Positions 25,570 to 64,000 of a DNA stretch of 64,000 nucleotides are shown one piece after another. The stretch's first letter is position 1, and each line of letters opens with the position of its first letter. The notes under the pieces are model-generated. The model saw only the letters and a list, made by a program, of their open reading frames with translations, had not been told where the DNA came from and did no database searches. The DNA is taken from NCBI RefSeq assembly GCF_056746865.1, contig NZ_CM163382.1; one strand, written 5' to 3'. The translations under genes were made by a program, and so were the position numbers.

Positions 25570-25790
25570 CTTAGGAGTGGCGGCATATAGCCAAAATAAC
25601 GTGAGCGGGTCCATGCCCGACAGAATCGTTACTCTCTCCCATCCGGACTCTAACCGTCGGCCCCGGAATTACACCGGATCTGCTGTCCTTTGAGTTCGCA
25701 CCCAAAGCGCTCGCGGGCTTTCAACTGAGTTGATTTACCGCCGGTGGGGAATTTCGCCCCGCCCTGAGAATAAGCGGATTCACTATAACG
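25570..25790 (-). ncRNA. sroG: FMN riboswitch (RFN element, sroG) in ribB 5' leader
   Basis: Minus-strand sequence contains conserved aptamer blocks CAGATCCGGTGTAATTCCGGGGCCGACGGTTAGAGTCCGGATGGGAGAGAGTAACG upstream of ribB. Confidence 0.8.
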
Positions 25791-29204: not shown

Positions 29205-29350
29205 CTGAAACGGGAAAGCCCCTCCCGAAGAAGGGGCCTTATAGAAGGAAAGGGTTATGATGAAGCTCGTCATCATACTGATTGTGTTGTTACTAGTAAG
29301 TTTCCAGGCTTATTAACAACCAATTCAGAGGGGGGAGAAATCCTCCCTTA
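29205..29350 (-). ncRNA. sibD: Sib antisense RNA (antitoxin to Ibs), copy 1; boundaries approximate
   Basis: Antisense to ibs ORF; GC hairpin GCCCCT-CCCGAAGA-AGGGGC at 29217-29240 fits a minus-strand terminator; boundaries inferred. Confidence 0.5.
29257..29316 (+). CDS. ibsD: Ibs-family type I toxin (19 aa hydrophobic peptide MMKLVIILIVLLLVSFQAY)
   Basis: ATG ATG AAG CTC GTC ATC ATA CTG... TAA; matches Ibs toxin family; located between yqiK and hldE as ibsD/ibsE are in E. coli. Confidence 0.7.
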   Translation: MMKLVIILIVLLLVSFQAY

Positions 29351-29582
29351 CCCTTGTTCCTTTACTTTAGGTTGAAAAAAAATCAGCGTCAAGAAGGTTT
29401 CTCTATCCCACATCCCTGGCCCAAAAAGCCGGGGATTTTTTATATCTGCGTTCCGCTAAAAGGTGCAAATGATCAGGCTGTTGCAGCATTTTGCGTGACG
29501 GCTCGGGGAAGGCAAAACTGCATCAGGGAAAGCATTGCGCGGGGTCTGGCGCTCATCAACAATCGGGGAGTCAGCAAGGGGC

Positions 29583-29727
29583 TGAAACGGGAAAGCCCCT
29601 CCCGAAGAAGGGGCCTTGTATAAGGAAAGGGTTATGATGAAGCTGGTCATCATACTGATTGTGTTGTTACTCGTAAGTTTCGCAGCTTATTAACAGCCAA
29701 TCAGAGGGGGGAGAAATCCTCCCTCAC
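29583..29727 (-). ncRNA. sibE: Sib antisense RNA, copy 2; boundaries approximate
   Basis: Antisense to second ibs ORF; same hairpin structure as copy 1. Confidence 0.5.
29634..29693 (+). CDS. ibsE: Ibs-family type I toxin (MMKLVIILIVLLLVSFAAY)
   Basis: Second copy of 19-codon hydrophobic ORF; differs from copy 1 by Q17A. Confidence 0.7.
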   Translation: MMKLVIILIVLLLVSFAAY

Positions 29728-29812
29728 CCTTGTTCCTTTACTTTAGGTTGAAAAAAAAACAGCGTCAATAGGCCTGCCAGGTTCGAAGCGAGATCTGTGA
29801 ACCGCTTTCCGG

Positions 29813-49878: not shown

Positions 49879-50003
49879 ATTTACTCCTTTCTAACATCAC
49901 CAGGAAAAGTATAACGGATTGAAAATACATTGTTTATAAAAACAGCAGGCGCGCGGTAATGGCTGGATTGCGACACGGAGTTACTTTATAATCCGCTACC
50001 ATG

Positions 50004-50078
50004 GCCCCTTAGCTCAGTGGTTAGAGCAGGCGACTCATAATCGCTTGGTCGTTGGTTCAAACCCAACAGGGGCCACCA
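50004..50078 (+). tRNA. ileX: tRNA-Ile (anticodon CAU; lysidine-modified Ile2 type)
   Basis: GGCCCCTTAGCTCAGTGGTTAGAGCAGGCGACTCATAATCGCTTGGTCGTTGGTTCAAACCCAACAGGGGCCACCA; cloverleaf with CAT anticodon in loop CTCATAA; encoded CCA. Confidence 0.9.
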
Positions 50079-50176: not shown

Positions 50177-51022
50177 TCAGATGGCTGATAATTGTCCCGG
50201 ATAACGCTTTGCAATGATGTCATTTAGCCGATCAACCAGTTCTGGTTTTCTGAATGTGATATGCGCGGAGCCCTTCTTAAAGTATCTGATGCTGAACATC
50301 TCATCTTCATAGCTCTCTTTACCCTGAACAGACTGAATGTGCTCATCCAGACGAATAGTGATGTTTTCCCGATTGTCGGGGATTGGTTTACCGCTGAACA
50401 GGTGCAACATTCTTTCCAGATCGGCGAGTCGGTCAGCCTGTTGTCCGGTGATAAGATGAAATCCCCACCGGTCCCATCTCACCAGATTGTTGACGATAAT
50501 TTTACTGCCAAATTTACAGGGGCAATTGGTTTTGTAATTCCAGTTCAGCCCTCTGAAGACGTTGATCACCCCTCGCTCAAACACCTCATCCTTATTCTGG
50601 TGCAGTTGTTCAAATGTGCTCAGGATGTTCGCTTCGCTGATTTCCGGAAAATTATCGTACTCCAGTGACCGGTACCATGTCTCACGGGCCTGTGCATCCA
50701 TTAAGGAAAGCATCCCGGAACGTTGCATCAAGTCACGCCAGATTTCACGATCGAGATTGTGTGTGATGGCTTTCATTGCCGTTTCAGGTTTCTCCATGAG
50801 CCAGCAGCCACAGCGAAAATCCTGTTTCATCGCCCAGTCCAGTGCGGTTTTACCGCCAATACTTTCTGTCATTGCTGAGATTTCAGCCAGTTGCCGGATA
50901 AGTGTGTTGATTTGCAGCAGTGTACTTTTTCGTACAGCCAGAATGTGGCGGATACTGGTTGAGCAGATAACGTCCGTATGCCCGTTGACTACTTCCGGAC
51001 GGGAGGCTGTGATATCAGACAT
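50177..51022 (-). CDS. Uncharacterised island protein (281 aa; possibly DUF4942 family)
   Basis: Long clean ORF at tRNA-proximal end of island; family assignment from memory only. Confidence 0.55.
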   Translation of the reverse strand: MSDITASRPEVVNGHTDVICSTSIRHILAVRKSTLLQINTLIRQLAEISAMTESIGGKTALDWAMKQDFRCGCWLMEKPETAMKAITHNLDREIWRDLMQRSGMLSLMDAQARETWYRSLEYDNFPEISEANILSTFEQLHQNKDEVFERGVINVFRGLNWNYKTNCPCKFGSKIIVNNLVRWDRWGFHLITGQQADRLADLERMLHLFSGKPIPDNRENITIRLDEHIQSVQGKESYEDEMFSIRYFKKGSAHITFRKPELVDRLNDIIAKRYPGQLSAI

Positions 51023-51118: not shown

Positions 51119-51316
51119 TCACCGGTTCGGGGGCTGAAGCTGCAGTTGGCGCAGGGTACGGATATCCTCCCTGGCCTGTTCAATACAGGACAACAGGGCT
51201 GTCGAATCCGTTTTATCCTCATCGTTGTCAAAGATAATTCCGGATTCACAGTCGATATTGTCCTGCAGCCACGCAATCAGAATATCCAGCGCTGTTTCCG
51301 TGGTTAATGATTTCAT
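51119..51316 (-). CDS. Small uncharacterised island protein (65 aa from MKSLTTET; possibly DUF957)
   Basis: ORF 51119..51361 trimmed to internal Met to avoid overlap with upstream ORF; acidic small protein. Confidence 0.4.
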   Translation of the reverse strand: MKSLTTETALDILIAWLQDNIDCESGIIFDNDEDKTDSTALLSCIEQAREDIRTLRQLQLQPPNR

Positions 51317-51327
51317 GTTGTTTCTGG

Positions 51328-51816
51328 TTACCAGTCGAAAGTGGGTAAATCCGGCAGACACCCGGCGCTGGCATCCAGATGAATAAGACTGACGCCATAA
51401 CGCCGGATGAGAGTGACAACCAGACGGCGGAAGGTTTTTGACAGGCCCAGACGTTTAAGGTGTAGCACCGGATACGACAAAGCATCGGTACGTAACAGAT
51501 ACCCTCTGCCTGTAAAATGAATCCATTCTGATTCGCCGGTGTCATTCGTCTGATGCGACAGCGAGTACAGCCAGGTGTTGTCCGTTTCCGTGATATGTGC
51601 GGTACTGCAGCGTATGCCGGTAAGGGCAGCAAATGGTGGCGTGCAGTCTGCTGAGGTCCGGTCAGATTCATCAACAACACGAAGGGAGTAGCCGTTATCG
51701 CAGATCATGTTAATCAGTTCAGCGAGATTAACACCATCAATGTCAACGACAATTCGCCCCATATTCAGTGCCTGTACGTTAACGCTGTCGGCTTCCAGTG
51801 TCAGGGTCAGTTGCAT
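51328..51816 (-). CDS. YeeW-like uncharacterised protein downstream of cbtA
   Basis: 162 aa ORF immediately after cbtA stop, position equivalent to yeeW in CP4-44. Confidence 0.45.
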
Positions 51817-52190
51817 CGTTTCGACTCCTGATGCTTACCCAGGGTAATGTTATTTACCGTTCTGTAATTGTCGCGGGTCATCAGGCCGGTTGCCCGGCGA
51901 GCCCGGAGAATATCAATACTGTTTATTAACTGAGAGCGGGTACAGGCGCTGAATCCCGGCTGGTCGGTACGTACCAGTGCGTATTTTTCAACGAGAAAGT
52001 TCACCGCATCGCACAGTGAAATGCCTGCCTCAATATGCTGCTCAATCACACGTTCATCAGCGAACGGTGTGTCATTCAGCGTAAGGCCGTAATGCTGGTC
52101 CAGCAGTCGGGTGAGCAGTGTCTGCCAGATTTCAACCGGAGACGGGCGTGAACTGGCCGCCTGCCCGGGTAATACAGGTAATGTTTTCAT
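51807..52190 (-). CDS. cbtA: CbtA/YeeV-family type IV toxin (cytoskeleton-binding toxin)
   Basis: ORF trimmed to [23 protein letters not shown]...; family conserved sequence. Confidence 0.8.
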
Positions 52191-52279
52191 ACTGAAGATT
52201 TTCCTGATATGCAGAGATGAAAAATGGAAAAGTGGCGTGGTGAAAGCACCAGGCCGGAGCAGAAGGTTATTCTGGATAG

Positions 52280-52648
52280 TTACCTTTTCGTTTCGGGCGT
52301 CGGATAAACAGCCATATAAACGTAGCCACAACTGCCGAGGGTGTCGGCTTCGCAGGTCAGCCCTTTTGCATACAGCGTGACGGTATGCTGATGGCGGGAA
52401 TTCAGTTCACCGCTGGTGAGCATGAGTTCCAGTTGTTTCATCAGCAGCGGAAAGGCCTGGTCCAGGTGGTACGAATCCGCGTCGCTGAACCGGCCTCTGA
52501 TACCGGCGCGGTCGGCAAGGTAATGCAACCGGTTGCCCTCCTGCACCAGACGGGCGCCAAAACAAGGTGTCACGGTACAGGGCAGCCCCCACCAGGGGCG
52601 GTCGTGATTGTCATCGGGATGCGTTGTCCCGGGCAGTGTGTCTGACAC
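52280..52648 (-). CDS. cbeA: CbeA/YeeU-family antitoxin
   Basis: 122 aa; [48 protein letters not shown]. Confidence 0.8.
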
Positions 52649-52727
52649 AATAAAATCCTCACAGAAAATTGGTTAAGAATGGTCCGGTGGTGGCGATAAT
52701 TCTGCTCTTCTGAATGCCCTTCCGGAC

Positions 52728-52949
52728 TCAGTTCAGGGTGACGCTCATCAGCCGGACATACGGACCAAAACTGTCCTTACGGCGTTCTGCAAACACAGCC
52801 AGCACACCGGGAATATCCTGCACTTCACGGCCGGTATATGTATCCGTGCTACCGTGCCAGCGGTATTTGCCGGTACAGAACGGAAAAAGACGGGATGCCG
52901 GATGTTGTTGGTGAATACGCATGGCTTCACCACGGGTGATGATTTTCAT
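52728..52949 (-). CDS. YeeT/DUF987 protein
   Basis: 73 aa; MKIITRGEAMRIHQQHPASRLFPF; conserved partner upstream of cbeA. Confidence 0.7.
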   Translation of the reverse strand: MKIITRGEAMRIHQQHPASRLFPFCTGKYRWHGSTDTYTGREVQDIPGVLAVFAERRKDSFGPYVRLMSVTLN

Positions 52950-53017: not shown

Positions 53018-53494
53018 TTAAAGCAGACCGTGTTCCGCAAAGGAGAAAACCTGGCTGCCACCGACTATCAGATGGTCCGGTACCCGGATATCCACCAGGC
53101 CCAGTGCCTGTACCAGACGTTCCGTGATAAGGCGGTCTGCCTTGCTGGGTGTGACTTCACCGGACGGGTGATTGTGTGCCAGCACCACGGCAGCGGCATT
53201 GTGGTACAGGGCACGTTTAATCACTTCCCGGGGATGGACTTCCGTGCGGTTGATGGTGCCGGTGAAGAGGGTTTCACCGGCAATCAGCTGATTCTGGTTG
53301 TTCAGATACAGCACCCGGAACTCTTCCCGCTCCAGTCCCGCCATGTTCAGAATCAGCCACTCCCGTGCCGCATGCGTGGAGGTGAAGGCCACGCCGGGTT
53401 CATGAAGATGGCGGTCCAGGGTTTTCAGGGCCCGCTGAATGAGGCTGCGCTCGCCGGGCGTCATCTCTCCGGGCAGAAAAGAAAGCTGTTGCAT
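53018..53494 (-). CDS. RadC-like JAB-domain protein (YeeS/YfjY family)
   Basis: 158 aa; JAMM motif HNHPSGEVTPSKAD. Confidence 0.85.
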   Translation of the reverse strand: MQQLSFLPGEMTPGERSLIQRALKTLDRHLHEPGVAFTSTHAAREWLILNMAGLEREEFRVLYLNNQNQLIAGETLFTGTINRTEVHPREVIKRALYHNAAAVVLAHNHPSGEVTPSKADRLITERLVQALGLVDIRVPDHLIVGGSQVFSFAEHGLL

Positions 53495-53508: not shown

Positions 53509-53994
53509 TCAGTCAATGATGCGCATAATGGCGTTGCATTCCGGATGCTGCAGGGCGTAATCCCGCAGCCGGTAATAATGGACCGTCATGGCATAACACT
53601 CCGTACGACAGGCATGATGGCTGTACGTCATCAGACAGGCAGCAATGCCGGCGGCTTCCGGGCTCATTTCAGCGCGGTTACCGTTCATGGCACTGAACAG
53701 TACCCATGTTTCGTCATCATCGTCATCCGGTTCGGGTGCCATAAATGCCCCGCCGTTGTTCAGGGTGTACAGATTCCAGATACCACCACAGTAGTCTTCG
53801 CACAGACGATCCATCCAGCCGAAGACACGGGGCTCCAGGGTCACCCACTGTGGAATGAGGCCAAAATGCTGCGGCCAGAAGCTGATGCGCTGTTCATCAG
53901 GGACGAGGGTGGCAACCAGTTGAGGCGGGTTATTCTCTGATACAGCGGTTACGGAAACAGAAGGTGTGGTGGAATTATGCAAAACGGTTGTCAT
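53509..53994 (-). CDS. Antirestriction protein (ArdB/KlcA/YfjX family)
   Basis: 161 aa; family-typical C-terminal region; position upstream of radC-like gene as in CP4-57 yfjX. Confidence 0.7.
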   Translation of the reverse strand: MTTVLHNSTTPSVSVTAVSENNPPQLVATLVPDEQRISFWPQHFGLIPQWVTLEPRVFGWMDRLCEDYCGGIWNLYTLNNGGAFMAPEPDDDDDETWVLFSAMNGNRAEMSPEAAGIAACLMTYSHHACRTECYAMTVHYYRLRDYALQHPECNAIMRIID

Positions 53995-54084: not shown

Positions 54085-54903
54085 TCAGCGCATACTCTTC
54101 AGCAGTGTTTCTGCCATCACCCACAATGCGCGATTGAGCTTAATGTCGGTGTCGATGCTGTGAATGGCACGGGTATGGATACGTTTTCCTCTGGCACTGC
54201 GACCGGAAATCCCGCCTTTCAGCATATTCTCCTGGATGGTCTGATAAGCACTCCACAGGTCCTTACCGTAATCCTCCCGGCGTCGCGGTGTCAGAATGTC
54301 AGCAGCGGTGACGGGCTGATGTTCGTCACCATAACGGTAAGTCAGTGCCGCCTGTGCCAGCGCCTGGCGTGCCGGTGGCGGCAGGACCAGCGACTGCATG
54401 GCATCACGCTTCTCCTCAATCCGGTCAAAAACCCCCACCACCTCGTAAGCCCCTTCGATAACTTTCTCCACTACGTCTCCCCGGTGTGGAACACGCACTT
54501 CCCCCAGAGACTGACCACAGACGCATCCGTTCTGGCAGACGAACCTGAAGTAACCCGGCAGCATCTGGTAGCTGGAGGTACCGTCATGGGAGTTCAGCAG
54601 GATGATTTCAGGGACATGTTGTCCGTTTATCTCCCCGTCACGGCGCAGACGCAGCATGTGTTTGGTGTATCCCCGGCGGCCCGGGTCGCGCACGCGGGTC
54701 TGGCAGGCGAAGAATGGCTGGAAGCCTTCCCGCTGCAGGCTTTCCAGCACGGTGATGGTGGGGATCCAGGTATAGTTCTCGCTTCTGGATGTGTGTTTCT
54801 CTTCCCCGAATACGCTGGGGACGACCTGCATCAGTTCTTCACGGGTTAAGGGGCGGTCACGGCGTATCTGGTTCGCATAACCAAAACGACTGGCTAATCG
54901 CAT
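54085..54903 (-). CDS. DUF932 protein (YfjQ/YafZ family)
   Basis: 272 aa; MRLASRFGYANQIRRDRPLTREELMQVVPSVFGEEKH. Confidence 0.75.
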   Translation of the reverse strand: MRLASRFGYANQIRRDRPLTREELMQVVPSVFGEEKHTSRSENYTWIPTITVLESLQREGFQPFFACQTRVRDPGRRGYTKHMLRLRRDGEINGQHVPEIILLNSHDGTSSYQMLPGYFRFVCQNGCVCGQSLGEVRVPHRGDVVEKVIEGAYEVVGVFDRIEEKRDAMQSLVLPPPARQALAQAALTYRYGDEHQPVTAADILTPRRREDYGKDLWSAYQTIQENMLKGGISGRSARGKRIHTRAIHSIDTDIKLNRALWVMAETLLKSMR

Positions 54904-55174
54904 GATTTATTCCTTATGAATGAGTTAGCGGTGTAAATGAAAAAGCCGCGTCTCCCGGAGAAGACGCGGCCTGATGGACGAAATGAATGACGTTTATTGT
55001 CTGAGAAGCCCTTCACTGGCGAGCTGCGTATTTTTATGGAAGGAGATCACCCAATAACCCCATCGGGATCGGGCAATAACCGGCCAAATTGTGAACGATT
55101 CAGATGCCATTTGGCAGCAAAAGAGCCTTCGGCAATAAACGTGATGTACAACCCGGCATATCTGTTGCTCCCTG

Positions 55175-55207
55175 AAAGTAAAAAGCCCCGGTCATTATGA
55201 CCGGGGC
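55175..55207 (-). terminator. Ag43 intrinsic terminator
   Basis: GCCCCGGTCAT-TATGACCGGGGC hairpin followed on minus strand by TTTTTACTTTC. Confidence 0.6.
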
Positions 55208-55229
55208 CTGAAGGGGAGTGACCTGATTA

Positions 55230-58076
55230 TCAGAAAGTCACATTCAGCGTGGCCTGACCGTTATAGCCTTCAGCGCTGTTGCCGCTGACACTGTGGGCAT
55301 AACCGGCCTGAACGCCCAGAGTGATATTTTCCCGGACACGGGCTTCCAGTCCGGCCTGCAGGTCCAGTGACGTGCCATTCTGTGACGGTGAGAACGTCAT
55401 GTTACTGCCGGCTTCAGCTGTACCCATGCTCATGTCACCCCGGGAGCTGAAAGTGCGGATAACAGAAGGCTGTACCCACCAGTTCACCGGCAGTTCACTC
55501 ACACGGTGTTTTGTACTGTCGCGCAGAGTGTCACGGGATGAGGTGCCTTCGCCAAAGGTCATATCGTTGTGGCTGCCCAGACGGAAGCCGGCACGCACAT
55601 GTTGTGTACTGCCATGCCCGAACTTCACATAACCGGCGTTATCCTGGCCGTCATCCAGGGAGAGCCCCTGCCAGGTGTACTGCAGTTGTGGCTCCAGCAT
55701 CAGGTTGTCAGTGATACTGAAGGGCAGACCGGTTTCCAGTGAGCCCAGCCAGCCCCAGCCCCGGGCGCGGAAGTCGTTATTGTCCGATGACGCTTTCATG
55801 CTGTGGCGGGTTCCCTGTGCCACAATGTCAGCCCACAGGCCGGAGGACGTGTGTGTCAGATTCAGGTATCCGCCCAGGCTGCCGGCATCATCCCGGACTG
55901 TGCCGGCGCGGGAACCGTCATCATCCTTAACATCAACGGAAGAATGACCTGCAGCACCATACACCCCTGTCGTCAGAGACATACCTGCAACCTCTGTTCT
56001 CAGCAGGTCACCCTCCAGACGGACGAAGCCATAGCTGCCGCTGCTTTCCGGCGTGGCTCCACGGGCAATACCGCCGTTGTTATCGTGACCGAGATGACCG
56101 CCCTGAATGCTGAGACGGACGCTGTTATTTTCACCGTTTACACCGGTCTGATGGCTGCGGGAGCCTGCCAGAATCCGGTCATAGTCCATTGCCTGTGTCA
56201 GCATGGAGGCATACAGGGGGACTTCAGCACGATAAGCATTTTCACTGCGCAGGTACCAGTCTTCATCGCTGTCACGGTTCAGGGTGTAGTTAAAGGCACC
56301 GGCCTGAAGCGGGCGACTCAGGGCAAACGCACCTTCTTCTGTGGTGGCACCATTCTGTGCATCCACAACCCGGATACCCTGTCCGGAGGTTGCCACCCCG
56401 AGGTTACTGTTTCCGACATTTGTGAACGCAAGCCAGGTTTTGCCGGTTGCCTGACCACCATTAATCACCAGCTGGTCAGAGGCATTGCTGCCATCAAGGC
56501 GAACACGCATATTGATGGTGCCACCCTGACCGGTGAGGTTACTGGTTGTCAGTTTATGGAACGTTACCGGGGCGTTGCCTTTTGCAACAGCACGGCTCAG
56601 TATGGCATCCGGTGTTGTCTGATTGTCAAAGTAAATCTCCCCTGCGTTAACAATATCGCCGGTACTGACCACATCACCATTCAGTACCATGCTGGCGCCT
56701 TTACTGAGCTGTGTTCTGCCACTCAGACTTCCCCCGGCAGCCAGCATCAGTGTTCCACGATGTCCGACAGTGGTGTTGCCAGCCTGTCCCCCGGCATTAA
56801 CCGTAAAGCTGCCGCCATTTTCCAGCAGCAGGCCGCTGGCCTGACCGGATATGCCATCAATACTGAACTTACCGCTGGCATTGGTCCCCTCAACAGTGGC
56901 ACCACTGTCTGCAATCAGGGCACCACCGGATGTCATGGTGACACCTGTCGCCTTACCACCGGCAGACACTGCCAGGGTTCCGCCGTCATCCACCCGTGTT
57001 TTCTGCGCTGAATGGCCCTCCAGTACATCCAGGCGACCGCCGGACTCCAGAACAACACCGTCAGCCTTACCGTTTTCCACCGTGAAATTCCCCAGACGGT
57101 TGCTGCCGGTGACGGTTGCCGCCGTACTGGTGACCAGTGCGCCGCCCTGCTTCAGGGTGACATTCGTGGCTGTACCACCGGCGTTCACCTGCAGTTTGCC
57201 TTTCTGGTTAACGGTGGAGAAATCCGCCAGACCACCTTCCTTGATAATCTGCCAGCCGTCACTGTTTACAACAGTGCCAGACGCCGTACCGCCGTTGTGC
57301 ACATACTGGTACCCCCCATTCAGCGTGGTATCCAGTGCGTGACCATGTACAGTCTGGTCGCCGCCGGCATAAACCACAGTGGTATTTGCCGTTCCTTCAG
57401 CAGCCACAATCTGACGACCATTTTTATTGATGGTGGTGCGTACGGCATCTCCGTAGACGGTCTGCCCGGTATCACCATTTTCTGCATCCGGTCCCCCTTC
57501 CGCGCCGGTATTCACAACCGTGTCGGTTGCCATTGCGCCGGATTTGACGGCCTGCCAGCCCTTCTCATTAATGACGGTACCCGTTGCAATCCCGCCTTCA
57601 TGTATCCACTGCTCACCGCCGTTCAGAGTGGTGTTCACTGCCTGCCCCTGAAGGCTCTGTCCGCCTCCGGCACTGATAACCGTGTCTGAAACGCTTCCTC
57701 CGGCATTCACTCTCTGAAGACCACCACCGGTGACAGTAGTGTTGTTGGCGGTACCGCCATTTTGTATCCATTGGCCGCCGGTATTCGCCTCGTTATCCGG
57801 CCCATACTCCAGCCCGGTACTGATGGTCATTCCGTTGGCCGTACCGAAGACAATCTGGTTGTCATGATTTGTCAGTGTTCCGCCGCTCACGGTTTCTCCC
57901 GCCTGTACGACCGTGTCAGCAGCCAGTACCGGGACTGACGTGACAGCAGCAAGAGACAGCGCAACCGCCACACCGGTGCGTTTTCCCCGTGAGCGCGCCA
58001 GTTCGGAAGCCACCACCAGGGTGCCCGTAATGTGATTCCATACCAGCCTGTAGCTGGTGTTCAGATGTCGTTTCAT
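55230..58076 (-). CDS. flu: Antigen 43 self-associating autotransporter adhesin (short ~950 aa variant)
   Basis: ORF trimmed to MKRHLNTSYRLVWNHITGTLVVASELARSRGKR extended signal peptide; beta-helical passenger repeats; C-terminal beta-barrel ending ...YNGQATLNVTF. Confidence 0.9.
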   Translation of the reverse strand: MKRHLNTSYRLVWNHITGTLVVASELARSRGKRTGVAVALSLAAVTSVPVLAADTVVQAGETVSGGTLTNHDNQIVFGTANGMTISTGLEYGPDNEANTGGQWIQNGGTANNTTVTGGGLQRVNAGGSVSDTVISAGGGQSLQGQAVNTTLNGGEQWIHEGGIATGTVINEKGWQAVKSGAMATDTVVNTGAEGGPDAENGDTGQTVYGDAVRTTINKNGRQIVAAEGTANTTVVYAGGDQTVHGHALDTTLNGGYQYVHNGGTASGTVVNSDGWQIIKEGGLADFSTVNQKGKLQVNAGGTATNVTLKQGGALVTSTAATVTGSNRLGNFTVENGKADGVVLESGGRLDVLEGHSAQKTRVDDGGTLAVSAGGKATGVTMTSGGALIADSGATVEGTNASGKFSIDGISGQASGLLLENGGSFTVNAGGQAGNTTVGHRGTLMLAAGGSLSGRTQLSKGASMVLNGDVVSTGDIVNAGEIYFDNQTTPDAILSRAVAKGNAPVTFHKLTTSNLTGQGGTINMRVRLDGSNASDQLVINGGQATGKTWLAFTNVGNSNLGVATSGQGIRVVDAQNGATTEEGAFALSRPLQAGAFNYTLNRDSDEDWYLRSENAYRAEVPLYASMLTQAMDYDRILAGSRSHQTGVNGENNSVRLSIQGGHLGHDNNGGIARGATPESSGSYGFVRLEGDLLRTEVAGMSLTTGVYGAAGHSSVDVKDDDGSRAGTVRDDAGSLGGYLNLTHTSSGLWADIVAQGTRHSMKASSDNNDFRARGWGWLGSLETGLPFSITDNLMLEPQLQYTWQGLSLDDGQDNAGYVKFGHGSTQHVRAGFRLGSHNDMTFGEGTSSRDTLRDSTKHRVSELPVNWWVQPSVIRTFSSRGDMSMGTAEAGSNMTFSPSQNGTSLDLQAGLEARVRENITLGVQAGYAHSVSGNSAEGYNGQATLNVTF

Positions 58077-58293
58077 CAGCTTTTCCTTACAGAGGGTGAA
58101 TAAAAAAGCCGGTACCCACAAATGTGGATACCGGCAGGTACAAAACAGCATGGTCAGATAAAGTGGTTTTTCCCGGACATAAATGCTTCCCCTCTCTCAT
58201 CCGCCAGAGAAGTATCAGTCCGTTGTGTGCAATTCCGTTCTGCATGATGAAGAGATTCAACTGCCTTTTCGCAGGCCATTAACCACTATAAAC

Positions 58294-58329
58294 GATCGAT
58301 AGTAACGATCGATACCTGTTTTATTGATC
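58294..58329. promoter_or_regulatory. Three clustered Dam GATC sites (Ag43 phase-variation switch / OxyR operator)
   Basis: GATC at 58294, 58307 and 58326 within 36 bp (AACGATCGATAGTAACGATCGATACCTGTTTTATTGATCG) ~220 bp upstream of Ag43 start. Confidence 0.7.
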
Positions 58330-58448
58330 GTTTTATTCTATTGATTGCAAGGCGGTCACGCAAGAGAAACAGGAGGATCATGAGGTGTTTGTGTCATGTT
58401 TTCAGTTGGTTAACGCAATGTAATCAGGCATTTCCCCTGGCAGACTGT

Positions 58449-59584: not shown

Positions 59585-61141
59585 ATGACAAGTATTCAAC
59601 AACGAGCAGAACTGCACCGCCAGATATGGCAAATTGCCAATGATGTCAGAGGTTCTGTTGACGGATGGGATTTTAAGCAATACGTTCTGGGCGCACTTTT
59701 CTACCGTTTTATCAGCGAAAATTTTTCCAGTTATATTGAAGCCGGTGATGACAGTATCTGTTATGCGAAACTGGATGACAGCGTAATTACTGATGACATT
59801 AAAGACGATGCCATCAAAACTAAAGGCTACTTCATCTACCCCAGTCAGCTTTTCTGCAACGTAGCGGCGAAAGCAAATACTAATGACAGGCTGAATGCAG
59901 ATTTAAACAGCATCTTCGTTGCTATCGAAAGTTCTGCTTACGGTTATCCTTCAGAAGCTGACATCAAAGGTTTGTTTGCTGATTTCGATACCACCAGTAA
60001 CCGCCTGGGTAACACCGTTAAGGATAAAAATGCCCGCCTGGCTGCGGTTCTGAAAGGGGTTGAAGGGTTAAAACTTGGTGACTTCAACGAACATCAGATT
60101 GACCTGTTCGGTGATGCCTATGAGTTCCTGATTTCTAACTATGCGGCAAATGCCGGTAAGTCAGGCGGTGAGTTCTTTACACCGCAGCACGTCTCCAGGC
60201 TGATTGCACAACTGGCTATGCACGGGCAGACCAGCGTTAACAAAATCTACGACCCGGCAGCGGGTTCCGGCTCACTGTTGTTGCAGGCGAAAAAACAGTT
60301 TGATAACCACATCATCGAAGAAGGCTTTTTCGGTCAGGAAATCAACCATACGACCTATAACCTGGCGCGTATGAACATGTTTTTGCACAACATCAACTAC
60401 GACAAGTTTGATATCAAGCTGGGTAATACACTGACTGAGCCACACTTCAGAGATGAAAAACCGTTTGATGCCATCGTTTCTAACCCGCCGTATTCGGTGA
60501 AATGGATTGGCAGCGATGACCCGACGCTGATTAACGATGAACGTTTTGCCCCGGCTGGCGTTCTGGCCCCCAAATCAAAAGCTGACTTCGCCTTTGTACT
60601 ACATGCGCTGAACTATCTTTCTGCCAAAGGTCGCGCCGCGATTGTCTGCTTCCCGGGTATTTTTTACCGTGGCGGCGCGGAGCAGAAAATCCGTCAGTAT
60701 CTGGTCGATAATAACTATGTCGAAACCGTGATTTCACTGGCACCGAACCTGTTCTTTGGCACCACCATTGCCGTCAATATTCTGGTGCTGTCTAAACATA
60801 AAACGGATACCAAAGTTCAGTTTATTGACGCCAGCGAACTGTTCAAAAAAGAGACTAATAACAACATCCTGACCGATGCTCATATCGAACAGATTATGCA
60901 GGTATTTGCCGGCAAGGAAGATGTTGCTCATCTGGCGAAATCTGTCACGTTTGAGACTGTTGTCGCGAATGACTATAACCTGTCGGTGAGCAGCTATGTG
61001 GAAGCGAAAGATAACCGCGAAGTGGTGGACATTGCTCAGCTCAACGCCGAGCTGAAATCTACTGTCGCCAGGATTGACCAGCTTCGCAGGGATATTGATG
61101 CCATCGTCGCTGAAATTGAAGGCGAGGAGCAGGAGGCATGA
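59585..61141 (+). CDS. hsdM: Type I restriction-modification methyltransferase subunit HsdM (type IC, EcoR124-like)
   Basis: 518 aa; SAM-binding DPAAGSGS and catalytic NPPY motif; overlaps hsdS by 4 nt. Confidence 0.9.
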
Positions 61142-62343
61142 GTAGCGTGAACTTCTTGGAAAAGCTGTTGGATGGCGTTGAGGTCGAGTGGAAGACACTT
61201 GGGCAAACTTGCAAAATTGAAACAGGAAAGCTTAATGCGAATGCGGCTGTTGATGATGGAGAGTATATGTTCTTCACGACAGCCAAAGAGACAAGCAAAA
61301 TTGATAAATTCCGCTGGGATACAGAGGCATTGCTGATTGCAGGCAATGCGAATGTTGGTGAGGTGAAGCATTACATCGGCAAGTTTGAGGCTTATCAGCG
61401 CACCTATGTTCTGACAAATTTCGACGAAAATGTAAGTGTTAGATTTTTGTATTTTGTGCTTAGCCATAGCCTGAAGAAATATCTCGAGGAAAGAACAAAT
61501 AGCGCGGCAATGACATATATCGTGCTATCAACCTTAGAGAATTTCCCTATCCCCATCCCCTGCCCAGGCAACCCCCAAAAATCCCTTGCCATCCAGTCTG
61601 AAATCGTTCGGATTCTGGATAAATTTACTGCACTTACCGCTGAGCTTACCGCTGAGCTTAACATGCGTAAAAAACAGTACAACTACTATCGCGACCAGTT
61701 GTTGAGTTTTAAAGAGGGTGAGGTTGAGTGGAAGACTTTGGGGGAAATTGGAGATTTTACATATGGATATGCAGCCAAAGCCATGGATTCAGGAGATGCC
61801 CGTTTCGTGAGAATTACTGACATAAATAAAGACGGGAAGCTATCGAAAGAAAACCCAATGTACGTTGAATTAAATGAGGAAAATGAGAAATATACCTTAG
61901 ACAAAAATGATTTACTCATGGCAAGAACTGGGGCAACCTTTGGTAAAACAATGATTTTTGAAGAAGATTATCCAGCAGTATACGCTGGTTTTTTAATAAA
62001 GTTGAACCTAAATAAAACGATTATTAATGCCAAATATTACTGGCACTTTGCACAAAGTGATTTTTTTTGGGAACAGGCTAATAAATTAGTATCTGGTGGT
62101 GGGCAACCACAGTTTAATGCTAATGCACTGAAACAAGTCAGAGTACCTATTCCATACCCATCTCACCCTCAAAAATCTTTAGACGAACAGGGGCGTATTG
62201 TGGATATTCTGGATAAGTTTGATGCAATCGCAGCTTCCATCACCGAAGGTCTCCCGCGTGAAATCGAGTTACGTCAAAAACAATACGAATACTATCGTGA
62301 TTTACTGCTCAGTTTCCCAAAACCTGAAACTGTCAGTAAATAA
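61138..62343 (+). CDS. hsdS: Type I R-M specificity subunit HsdS (type IC)
   Basis: 401 aa; two TRDs separated by central conserved region with TAELTAEL repeat and conserved KKQYxYYRDxLLSF blocks after each TRD. Confidence 0.85.
61627..61659 (+). repeat. Tandem 12-bp repeat (ACCGCTGAGCTT x2, preceded by partial ACTGCACTT) encoding TAEL-TAEL in hsdS
   Basis: Direct reading of hsdS codons 164-174: [11 protein letters not shown]. Confidence 0.8.
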
Positions 62344-62464
62344 TTGACCATTGCTACCGACCGGGCCTCCTTAACATCCGGTCAGTATATAGACTATTTT
62401 TTACGCGCCGGAAGTCACTCTTAACGCCCTTCCGGCTCTTGCCAGGCGGCACAAAGGATGCGCT

Positions 62465-64000
62465 ATGACTCATCAAACACACACCATTGCTGAATCCAAT
62501 AACTTTATCGTCCTTGATAAGTACATCAAAGCTGAGCAAACAAGCGACAGCTACCAGAGCGAATCGGACCTGGAACGTGAACTGATTCAGGACCTGCGGA
62601 ATCAGGGTTATGAATTTATTTCCGTAAAATCACAGTCGGCAATGCTGTCTAATGTTCGGGAACAGCTTCAGAGCCTCAATGGTGTGATGTTTAATGACAG
62701 CGAGTGGCGGCGCTTCACGGAGCAGTATCTGGACAACCCCAGCGATGGTATTCTGGATAAAACCCGTAAAATCCATATCGACTATATCTGCGACTTTATT
62801 TTTGACGACGGGCGACTTGAGAACATCTATTTGATAGATAAAAAGAATCTCATGCGCAATAAGGTGCAGATTATCCAGCAGTTTGAACAGACGGGTTCTC
62901 ATGCTAACCGTTATGACGTCACGATCCTGGTTAATGGTTTACCGCTGGTGCAAATCGAACTAAAAAAACGCGGGGTGGCGATTCGTGAGGCTTTCAACCA
63001 GATACATCGTTACAGTAAAGAGAGTTTTAACAGCGAAAATTCCCTGTTTAAGTATCTGCAACTGTTTGTCATTTCTAACGGCACCGATACCCGTTATTTT
63101 GCCAACACGACAAAGCGCGATAAAAACAGTTTTGACTTCACCATGAATTGGGCGAAATCAGACAACACGCTGATTAAAGACCTCAAAGACTTTACCGCTA
63201 CCTTTTTCCAGAAACATACTCTGCTGAATGTTCTGGTGAACTACAGCGTTTTTGACAGTAGTCAGACGCTACTGGTGATGCGACCGTACCAGATTGCCGC
63301 CACCGAGCGCATTCTGTGGAAAATTAAGAGTTCCTTTACAGCGAAGAACTGGTCAAAACCGGAAAGCGGTGGGTATATCTGGCACACTACCGGTTCTGGT
63401 AAAACCCTCACCAGCTTTAAAGCCGCGCGTCTGGCAACAGAGCTGGACTTTATTGATAAAGTCTTCTTTGTGGTCGACAGGAAAGACCTCGATTACCAGA
63501 CCATGAAGGAATATCAGCGTTTTTCGCCAGACAGCGTCAACGGCTCGGAAAATACCGCAGGCCTTAAACGAAATCTGGATAAGGACGATAACAAAATTAT
63601 CGTCACTACTATTCAGAAACTCAATAACCTGATGAAAGCAGAAAGCGACCTGCCTGTATATAATCAGCAAGTGGTGTTTATATTTGATGAATGCCACCGC
63701 AGCCAGTTTGGAGAAGCGCAGAAAAACCTGAAGAAGAAATTCAAACGCTATTATCAGTTTGGTTTTACCGGCACCCCTATTTTCCCGGAAAACGCCTTAG
63801 GCTCAGAAACAACCGCCAGCGTATTTGGCCGTGAATTGCATTCGTATGTGATTACCGATGCGATTCGTGACGAAAAAGTGCTCAAATTCAAGGTGGACTA
63901 CAACGATGTGCGGCCACAGTTTAAGTCTTTAGAGACAGAAACTGACGAGAAAAAACTGAGTGCGGCTGAAAATCAGCAGGCGTTTCTTCACCCCATGCGT
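62465..64000 (+). CDS. hsdR: Type I restriction endonuclease subunit HsdR (type IC), 5' portion only, truncated by window end
   Basis: In-frame translation [20 protein letters not shown]...; helicase motif I TGSGKT and motif II DECH; open to window end (not in ORF track because no stop). Confidence 0.9.

Follow-up and report, generated by a model that had tools for sequence, protein, structure and literature searches.

The 64,000-nucleotide stretch of DNA analysed here (the window, 64 kb) contains three co-oriented genes, all on the minus strand according to the ORF list and the sequence. They raise the question of which CbtA/CbeA paralogue they represent and whether the toxin is still intact. 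The first-pass annotation described a type IV CbtA/CbeA toxin–antitoxin pair in the order yeeT-cbeA-cbtA, put roughly 90 bp between antitoxin and toxin, and left the paralogue undecided by eye. Full-length Pfam matches bear out the pair and its order, and RefSeq names identical DNA alike (cbtA, YeeU-family antitoxin and DUF987). The gap measures 89 nt, and the interval 51807–52949 is exact, with the toxin stop codon at one end and the yeeT start codon at the other. The module has a single copy in the window.

We read the locus, with a probability of about 90%, as an intact orthologue of the K-12 CP4-44 segment yeeS-yeeT-cbeA-cbtA-yeeW, placed at the tRNA-proximal end of its island beside ileX, its activity being assigned by homology.

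Table 1. Positions of the module, its spacer and the adjoining features in the window
Feature	Positions	Strand	Details
Toxin gene, cbtA-type	51807–52190	minus	127 aa, ATG at 52190, stop codon at 51807
Antitoxin gene, cbeA-type	52280–52648	minus	122 aa, GTG start
yeeT-type DUF987 gene	52728–52949	minus	73 aa, start codon at 52949
Antitoxin–toxin spacer	52191–52279	minus	89 nt
Inverted repeat within spacer (candidate element)	52234–52255	minus	22 nt, predicted hairpin
yeeW-type DUF5983 gene, full-length	51328–51816	minus	162 aa; PF25638 and PF19419 matches
RadC-like JAB-domain gene (yeeS/ykfG/lfgB family)	53018–53494	minus	PF04002 match, E 1.3e-44; upstream neighbour
tRNA gene, CAU anticodon, annotated tRNA-Ile (ileX)	50003–50078	plus	ARAGORN, Rfam, RefSeq annotation of matching genome

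Identity and state of the toxin and antitoxin

The toxin matches PF06755 (CbtA_toxin) over positions 1–112 of 112, with 197.8 bits (cut-off 25; E 4.4e-59). Its mechanical ORF reaches an upstream TTG at 52331, but homology begins only at MKTLPV, and the start was therefore placed at the ATG. The antitoxin matches PF06154 (CbeA_antitoxin) over 1–100 of 101 (E 7.9e-55) and, over its residues 1–121, two solved YeeU structures, 2INW (E 4.6e-79) and 2H28 (E 7.3e-78); its GTG start codon is shared with K-12 cbeA. The YeeT protein matches PF06174 (DUF987) over 1–65 of 65 (E 9.3e-39).

Pairwise comparisons with the three K-12 modules gave a consistent picture. The toxin is identical to CbtA at 119 of 124 residues (96%), against 58% for YkfI and 64% for YpjF; the antitoxin is identical to CbeA at 112 of 122 (92%, ten substitutions), against 61% for YafW and 64% for YfjZ; and the YeeT protein is identical to K-12 YeeT at 69 of 73 (95%), against 66% for YkfH and 58% for YpjJ. 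Over a 1.8-kb block, the DNA runs collinear with K-12 yeeS-yeeW and is 92% identical to it, compared with 70–76% to CP4-6 and CP4-57. In K-12, 88 nt separate cbeA from cbtA, and the ykfI and ypjF modules have gaps of 20 nt, spacings also found in PMC5371832. Placement among CbtA, YkfI and YpjF, as the first-pass annotation had proposed, was carried out in a neighbour-joining tree of 82 family members, in which the toxin falls within the K-12 CbtA clade.

The Pfam families and gene order would fit a YkfI/YafW-type or YpjF/YfjZ-type module equally, the paralogues being inseparable by eye. This identity is refuted by the comparisons of identity (58–64%, against 92–96% to CbtA/CbeA), spacer (89 nt, not 20 nt), tree position and collinearity. 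In addition, both of these toxins lack the long C-terminal region present here (residues 104–127), and both carry Cys at position 15, where the present toxin has R15; we leave this assignment practically no probability. As far as sequence comparison assigns it, by identities, spacer, tree and DNA collinearity, the module is settled as a CP4-44-type CbtA/CbeA/YeeT orthologue. The accompanying view that such paralogues have different cytoskeletal targets is contradicted by Heller et al. 2017 (PMC5624674), who found the same targets and a conserved manner of action, CbtA, YkfI and YpjF all acting on FtsZ and on cell elongation/MreB.

Inactivating mutations relative to the characterised CbtA were looked for and are absent: the ORF is full-length and R15 and F65 are kept. 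Mutation has shown that F65 mediates the FtsZ contact and R15 the MreB contact (Heller 2017, PMC5624674). F65 is invariant across 23 family members, and R15 is specific to the present allelic type; the N-terminus of these toxins is hypervariable, with R15-type and C15-type alleles alternating. Since its N-terminus is R15-type, the allele is predicted to be a dual FtsZ/MreB inhibitor. The two internal substitutions relative to K-12 CbtA, I24T and S27T, both restore the family consensus. The extension of three residues goes back to a stop codon in the variable tail that changed from TGA to TGC, a change that appends just Cys-Asn beyond the ancestral stop position. This tail (KHQESKRCN here, KYPEAK in K-12) lies outside the Pfam domain and in the region where the family is conserved least. 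Judged from these features, the toxin is not inactivated.

The codon-position diversity of 99 distinct natural copies, 0.06–0.08 at positions 1 and 2 versus 0.16–0.18 at position 3, shows that the toxin and antitoxin genes are under purifying selection. At least 1000 public contigs encode the exact toxin protein, and 267 contigs encode the exact antitoxin.

These data also bear on the reading that the module, like much of K-12 CP4-44, is decaying and no longer functional, with the altered toxin end as a sign of erosion. The lost stop codon points that way, as do broken copies in other strains (a nonsense codon at position 74 in loci L098 and L100, a truncated tandem copy in L099), the many partial entries among the protein clusters, and K-12 CP4-44 itself, which is without its integrase and most of yeeW. 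Nevertheless, none of the three ORFs is shortened and each has a complete domain match, the residues added by the stop loss fall in a tail free to vary among family members, the exact toxin allele is widespread and selection is purifying; in contrast to K-12, DUF5983, DUF957 and DUF4942 are intact downstream. Decay is thus very unlikely.

For the intact orthologue, toxicity, target binding and type IV neutralisation are transferred to the present alleles from K-12 experiments. By this homology, the toxin would bind FtsZ at the H6/H7 loop via its F65-bearing surface and MreB via its R15-bearing surface, and its excess would block division and elongation, giving lemon-shaped cells. The antitoxin, of the CbeA/YeeU fold, would counter the toxin in the type IV mode, in that it bundles FtsZ and MreB polymers and makes them more stable; K-12 CbeA is described as bundling these polymers without binding the toxin (cited in PMC5624674).

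Gene neighbourhood and the standing of YeeT

The module lies in an island that follows rpoD-mug-tRNA-Ile in the RefSeq annotation of the matching genome. The ileX tRNA marks the island boundary, and the tRNA-DUF4942 junction is shared with 444 of 5426 complete E. coli genomes. Related modules occur in 4940 of these 5426 genomes, at a median of 3 places per genome. The CbtA toxin family was found in 66 of 72,556 plasmids. A phage origin of the module was rejected: of 50,697 phage records, one contained the family, and this record is a 3.2-kb fragment. The toxin family is essentially a chromosomal-island module. Among nine neighbourhood proteins there were no PADLOC defence-system matches, and only the RadC-like protein had an NCBIfam match.

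The RadC-like protein is 99% identical to K-12 YeeS and 73% to LfgB. Downstream of the toxin, the start of the DUF5983 gene overlaps the toxin 3′ end by 10 nt, and of this gene K-12 retains just a 64-aa remnant, YeeW. The gene string is bounded by terminator-like hairpins at 54972–54943 and 51079–51053, with no strong one inside. Spacing and terminator positions suggest a probable single transcript that starts upstream of the DUF932 gene and extends through DUF957; no sigma-70-like promoter for this operon was predicted on the minus strand, for which reason we infer the transcription unit only. In such a transcript, the toxin would come second, after the antitoxin, behind the 89-nt spacer and a Shine-Dalgarno sequence at an unfavourable distance, and the DUF5983 gene appears, from its spacing, translationally coupled to the end of the toxin.

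The YeeT gene is placed as in K-12, after the RadC-like gene and before the antitoxin. Of 73 related loci, 16 have no DUF987 gene upstream of the pair, which means that co-occurrence of DUF987 with the pair is not obligatory. The AlphaFold2 model of YeeT has a pLDDT of 94.5, and a fold search with it gave no informative match. YeeT has had one published functional test, for a role as antirepressor of DicA, and the outcome was negative (PMC10448788). The YeeT-like partner proposed in the first-pass annotation is thus supported as a neighbour only: YeeT is a conserved, frequent neighbour, not a demonstrated third component, and the label of partner to the toxin–antitoxin pair should be avoided.

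In a wider reading, the pair is part of a larger island cassette and not an autonomous two-gene addiction module. The order would be DUF932 - antirestriction - RadC/JAB - (YeeT) - CbeA - CbtA - (DUF5983 - DUF957) - DUF4942, on integrative islands. The RadC-like protease, perhaps with YeeT or DUF5983, would then modulate the toxin/antitoxin balance; alternatively, the genes would have a common role, for example in island establishment or stress response. In favour of this reading, 80 loci across Enterobacterales keep the gene order, 72 of 73 related loci have the RadC-like gene upstream and as many (72/73) have the antitoxin, intergenic gaps are short, and the start of DUF5983 overlaps the toxin stop. 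The CP4-57 homologues are described as one operon, lfgABCDE, whose RadC-like LfgB is a reported protease (PMC10846083); DUF5983 is the commonest gene paired with CbtA_toxin in a survey of E. coli lineages (PMC10790755); and DUF987 is more conserved than the toxin (86% versus 76% mean column identity). On the other hand, neither YeeT nor DUF5983 is obligatory, because they are absent from 16 of 73 and 45 of 69 loci, respectively (in 24 of 69, the DUF5983 gene immediately follows the toxin). Moreover, K-12 toxins are neutralised by their own antitoxins alone when expressed from plasmids (PMC5371832), RadC, YeeT and DUF5983 have no experimental link to the toxin, and the fold search with the YeeT model was uninformative. 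We regard the cassette as possible but on balance improbable; at the level of the two proteins, it is compatible with the CP4-44-type orthologue.

The antitoxin–toxin spacer

In a comparison with 80 loci from other species, gaps of 88–89 nt were confined to Escherichia-type sequences. The spacer is 93% identical to that of K-12, like coding DNA, while the two other intergenic spacers are 82% identical. It contains an inverted repeat, GGCCUGGUG-CUUU-CACCACGCC, followed by a U-rich stretch in which the U tract after the stem is interrupted; the toxin Shine-Dalgarno sequence, AGGA, stands 11 nt ahead of the ATG. The predicted fold of the 111-nt region has -22.5 kcal/mol (z -2.6). Diversity at the stem positions is 0.031, versus 0.16–0.18 at third codon positions, and the 22-nt repeat window has the 41st lowest diversity of 795.

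Compensatory changes in the two spacer hairpins amounted to 0 pairs among 48 haplotypes, and the observed values equal those of shuffles. The hairpins have no evolutionary support as structure, the conservation being of sequence only. In addition, a terminator scan did not call the inverted repeat, no Rfam family was detected in or near the module even at E <= 1, and a literature search linking cbeA with Term-seq found no paper.

The spacers of several genera at first seemed to pair with the Shine-Dalgarno sequence. Its sequestration by a pyrimidine-rich spacer was rejected, since across 43 loci the mean unpaired probability of the Shine-Dalgarno region was 0.53, versus 0.52 in composition-matched shuffles; it fell below the locus's own control in just 17 of the 43.

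The spacer of the Escherichia CbeA type (89 nt) might carry a selected regulatory element that, with the variable toxin N-terminus, tunes toxin dosage and target range, an idea that we hold to be doubtful. The candidate is the repeat at 52234–52255 with its U-rich tail, which could be a leaky attenuator or a site of mRNA processing or stability that keeps toxin output below antitoxin output. If true, how much of these toxins is made and which targets they reach would be tuned by features outside the two conserved domains. For work on toxin expression and target range, the conserved hairpin of the spacer and the variability of the toxin N-terminus offer small leads.

Comparison with known systems

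The module is already known, the system having been characterised genetically and biochemically in K-12. A useful gain is a firm paralogue assignment, and the significance beyond correct annotation is little.

The closest system is CbtA (YeeV)/CbeA (YeeU) of K-12 CP4-44, with YeeS, YeeT and YeeW in the same gene order. Protein identities are 96% for the toxin, 92% for the antitoxin, 95% for YeeT and 99% for YeeS, with 92% at the DNA level over 1.8 kb; the spacers are of 88 nt there and 89 nt here, the GTG antitoxin start, R15 and F65 are common to both, and Ag43 and IsrC lie upstream in both. The two differ in that the island here is at ileX, not at the CP4-44 site, and carries DUF932 and antirestriction genes in the place of yeeR; DUF5983, DUF957 and DUF4942 are intact here, whereas K-12 has the 64-aa YeeW remnant. 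The toxin is three residues longer by stop loss, and the antitoxin has its 10 substitutions.

YkfI/YafW of CP4-6 and YpjF/YfjZ of CP4-57 share the Pfam families, the order antirestriction-RadC-DUF987-antitoxin-toxin and F65. YkfI and YpjF are reported to produce lemon-shaped cells and to bind FtsZ (PMC5624674, PMC5371832). They differ from the present module in protein identity (58–64%), in their 20-nt spacers, in toxin length (109–113 aa) and in the Cys at position 15. The CP4-57 module belongs to lfgABCDE (yfjX-yfjY-ypjJ-yfjZ-ypjF), a homologous five-gene string described as an operon that includes the RadC-like protease LfgB (PMC10846083); MqsA control and protease activity were demonstrated for the CP4-57 copy only.

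CbtA/CbeA of Erwinia amylovora is a validated toxin–antitoxin pair of both Pfam families. It is reported to cause elongation and not a lemon shape and to show no FtsZ or MreB binding, and it belongs to a separate clade (PMC6521040); only this distant homologue departs from FtsZ/MreB targeting (PMC6521040), and the toxin here is far closer to E. coli CbtA than to the Erwinia amylovora protein.

Organization of the module and its genomic island

The region 51807–52949 holds an intact and already known CP4-44-type CbtA/CbeA toxin-antitoxin module with YeeT, located in an ileX island. The ORF list and the raw sequence place the yeeT-like, antitoxin and toxin genes in the same orientation in a minus-strand run, and their products gave complete-domain Pfam matches (DUF987, E 9.3e-39; CbeA_antitoxin, E 7.9e-55; CbtA_toxin, E 4.4e-59). 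These data bear out the core reading of the first-pass annotation, a CbtA/CbeA pair with yeeT, whose boundaries coincide exactly with the stop codon of the toxin and the start codon of yeeT. The module is present in one copy in the 64-kb window.

Features of the module, its island and the core-genome part of the window
Feature	Position	Strand	Remarks
FMN riboswitch	25627-25775		121 bits; core genome
SIB RNA	29242-29392		142 bits; core genome
SIB RNA	29619-29768		150 bits; core genome
tRNA gene	50003-50078		CAU anticodon
DUF4942 gene	50177-51022	minus	
Terminator-like hairpin	51079-51053		after DUF957
DUF957 gene	51119-51316	minus	
DUF5983/yeeW-type gene	51328-51816	minus	162 aa, full-length; overlaps toxin end by 10 nt (51807-51816)
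Toxin gene	51807-52190	minus	127 aa; ATG at 52190
Antitoxin-toxin spacer	52191-52279	minus	89 nt
Inverted repeat (second spacer hairpin)	52234-52255	minus	22 nt; predicted
Antitoxin gene	52280-52648	minus	122 aa; GTG start
DUF987/yeeT-like gene	52728-52949	minus	73 aa
RadC-like JAB gene	53018-53494	minus	
Antirestriction gene	53509-53994	minus	
DUF932 gene	54085-54903	minus	
Strong terminator-like hairpin	54972-54943	minus	before DUF932
Strong terminator-like hairpin	55209-55183	minus	
Ag43 (Ag43/Cah) autotransporter gene	55230-58151 (ORF)	minus	
IsrC/IS102 RNA	58095-58331		upstream of Ag43 gene; Rfam RF00124, 74 bits
Type I restriction-modification system (hsdM, hsdS, hsdR)	59585-64000		in island; hsdR runs off window

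The island starts directly after the tRNA gene, which is annotated as tRNA-Ile in a matching genome and is identified as ileX because it comes there after rpoD and mug. The ileX-DUF4942 junction was found in 444 of the 5426 complete E. coli genomes. Beyond the IsrC/IS102 RNA there are a GTPase gene and the restriction-modification system. The terminator scan indicated hairpins before DUF932 and after DUF957 and no strong one between them, positions consistent with this string of genes being one transcription unit. The two strong hairpins between the Ag43 and DUF932 genes lie about 210 nt apart; the stretch 54943–55209 has no annotated gene, and Rfam gave a single weak match there, on the other strand (Hrs1, E 0.89). 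A comparison of nine neighbourhood proteins with the PADLOC defence models gave no match.

Two RefSeq genomes match the 1.7 kb surrounding the module at 100% identity and annotate it as cbtA, YeeU-family antitoxin, DUF987, DUF5983 and DUF957. The whole window presents just 98.7% identity to one of them, CFSAN061769, and diverges from it in the hsdS region. The SIB RNAs of the core-genome part belong to Ibs/Sib type I toxin-antitoxin loci, in which they serve as the antitoxin.

Of 5426 complete E. coli genomes, 4940 carry related modules, at up to 15 places per genome (median 3), and 14,071 of the 14,077 places are chromosomal; published copy-number surveys agree with this distribution (PMC10790755). 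The toxin family is rare on plasmids (66/72,556) and nearly absent from phage genomes (1/50,697 records). The 90%-identity protein cluster holding the window antitoxin is represented by a CbtA toxin, and its entries are named partly as toxins and partly as antitoxins. This is a database artefact that probably arose by chaining via fused or mis-called two-domain ORFs such as the proteins P0080 and P0084.

Paralogue assignment and the antitoxin-toxin spacer

The proteins of the window were compared with those of the three K-12 modules.

Identity of the window proteins to their counterparts in the K-12 modules
Window protein	CP4-44	CP4-6	CP4-57
Toxin	CbtA 96% (119/124)	YkfI 58%	YpjF 64%
Antitoxin	CbeA 92%	YafW 61%	YfjZ 64%
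YeeT-like	YeeT 95%	YkfH 66%	YpjJ 58%
RadC-like	YeeS 99%	YkfG 83%	LfgB 73%

At the DNA level, K-12 yeeS-yeeW is collinear with a 1.8-kb block of the window (53470–51668, 92% identity), while CP4-6 and CP4-57 gave just patchy matches of 70–76%. The first-pass annotation had proposed phylogenetic placement among CbtA, YkfI and YpjF; a neighbour-joining tree built from 78 family representatives from a search of 5.8 billion proteins, together with CbtA, YkfI and YpjF of K-12 and the window toxin, placed the latter within the clade of K-12 CbtA, far from the other two K-12 toxins. The antitoxin-toxin gap, earlier estimated at approximately 90 bp, measures 89 nt. The K-12 cbeA-cbtA gap has 88 nt, compared with 20 nt in the CP4-6 and CP4-57 modules, as likewise reported by Wen et al. 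2017 (PMC5371832). Among 80 loci surveyed from other species, YkfI/YpjF-like toxins have 20-nt gaps and most others 24–69 nt, and gaps of 88–89 nt are confined to Escherichia-type sequences. Protein identities, DNA collinearity, tree and spacer length together identify this module as the CbtA/CbeA/YeeT orthologue.

The spacer is predicted to fold as two small hairpins (z −2.6 for a 111-nt region), the second formed by the inverted repeat GGCCUGGUG-CUUU-CACCACGCC, which is followed by a U-rich stretch. The repeat was not called by the terminator scan and matched no Rfam family. Sequestration of the Shine-Dalgarno sequence by the spacer was rejected, with an unpaired probability of 0.53 against 0.52 in shuffled controls across 43 loci. 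Covariation in the hairpins was equal to that of shuffles, with 0 compensatory pairs among 48 haplotypes. The constraint on the inverted repeat is present but modest: among 99 distinct natural copies from metagenomes and viral-contig collections, diversity was 0.031 in the stem and 0.042 in the 22-nt repeat, the 41st lowest of 795 mostly coding windows, compared with 0.156 in the first 24 nt of the spacer and 0.16–0.18 at third codon positions. This puts the repeat on a level with well-conserved coding sequence. The hairpin is possibly an attenuator or an mRNA processing or stability site, a small lead.

The repeat is confined to the Escherichia lineage of 122-aa CbeA-type antitoxins. A second antitoxin type (124–125 aa, with a different C-terminus), found in loci of E. 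coli and Klebsiella (L087–L096), pairs with similar toxins across an unrelated 46-nt spacer. The modules are therefore mosaic: recombination close to the start of the toxin has brought antitoxin-plus-spacer and toxin together in new combinations.

Integrity, variation and predicted action of the toxin

The toxin is intact. It differs from K-12 CbtA by I24T and S27T, which both return to the family consensus, and by its tail past residue 119 (KHQESKRCN instead of KYPEAK). The window toxin is longer because the TGA stop of close relatives reads TGC, which adds two codons before the next TGA; in the overlapping DUF5983 gene, the same base change replaces Lys by Gln at codon 2. The family is least conserved in this tail, which falls outside the Pfam domain. 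The exact sequences of the toxin and DUF5983 were each found on at least 1000 public contigs, that of YeeT on about 1000 and that of the antitoxin on 267. In the 99 natural copies, the toxin and antitoxin genes have diversities of 0.06–0.08 at codon positions 1 and 2 against 0.16–0.18 at position 3, the signature of purifying selection.

In K-12 CbtA, substitution of F65 abolishes the interaction with FtsZ and substitution of R15 that with MreB; a protein altered at both residues is no longer toxic (Heller et al. 2017, PMC5624674). The window toxin retains both residues. Decayed copies were observed on IMG/VR contigs: in L098 and L100 the toxin gene is interrupted by a nonsense codon at position 74, and L099 carries antitoxin, truncated toxin (57 aa), antitoxin and toxin in tandem. 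The window locus is not among these, and therefore the inactivating mutations relative to characterised CbtA, named by the first-pass annotation as evidence against the module, are absent from it.

CbtA binds FtsZ at the H6/H7 loop and MreB on its flat double-protofilament face, blocking division and elongation independently, and its excess yields lemon-shaped cells (PMC5624674). CbeA, which has the YeeU fold, is reported to neutralise by bundling FtsZ and MreB polymers, not by binding the toxin (as cited in PMC5624674), hence the name type IV for the pair. By homology, the window toxin would bind FtsZ and MreB and block both processes, and the antitoxin, which matches the solved YeeU-fold structures 2H28 and 2INW, would bundle the polymers.

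Toxin codons 6–20 (about 52130–52175) are the most variable stretch of the antitoxin-toxin segment (diversity 0.24–0.30), in which two N-termini alternate, the R15 type of the window and K-12 and the C15 type DTHVREASRCP. Position 15 falls within this stretch, and in K-12 CbtA the R15C change abolishes binding to MreB (PMC5624674), so the two alleles may differ in target range. Since it carries R15, the window toxin is predicted to inhibit both FtsZ and MreB, as the K-12 protein does. The earlier suggestion that paralogues have different cytoskeletal targets is contradicted by the literature, in which the three K-12 toxins are reported to be conserved in acting on FtsZ and elongation/MreB, although no YkfI-MreB two-hybrid signal was detected (PMC5624674). 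Truly divergent behaviour was reported solely for a distant Erwinia amylovora homologue (PMC6521040).

Associated genes and comparison with the K-12 islands

DUF987 is highly conserved (mean column identity of 86% in 32 Enterobacterales sequences) and usually separates the RadC-like gene from the antitoxin. Among 73 related loci with enough upstream DNA, it was found upstream of the pair in 57 and was absent in 16, while the RadC-like gene and the antitoxin were each present in 72. The sole functional test found in the literature searched, of YeeT, YkfH and YpjJ as DicA antirepressors, was negative (PMC10448788). The YeeT-like partner of the first-pass annotation holds as a conserved and frequent neighbour, not as a demonstrated partner, and the RadC-like gene is the tighter and most constant associate of the pair. 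The product of its homologue in CP4-57, LfgB, has been reported as a protease that is encoded in a five-gene operon with the toxin-antitoxin pair and cleaves the antitoxin MqsA (PMC10846083).

Of 69 related loci, 24 have a DUF5983 gene downstream of the toxin. In K-12, YeeW is a 64-aa remnant, whereas its window counterpart is full-length. On the other side of the module, the order of the IsrC/IS102 RNA and the Ag43/Cah gene matches the isrC-flu arrangement of K-12 CP4-44.
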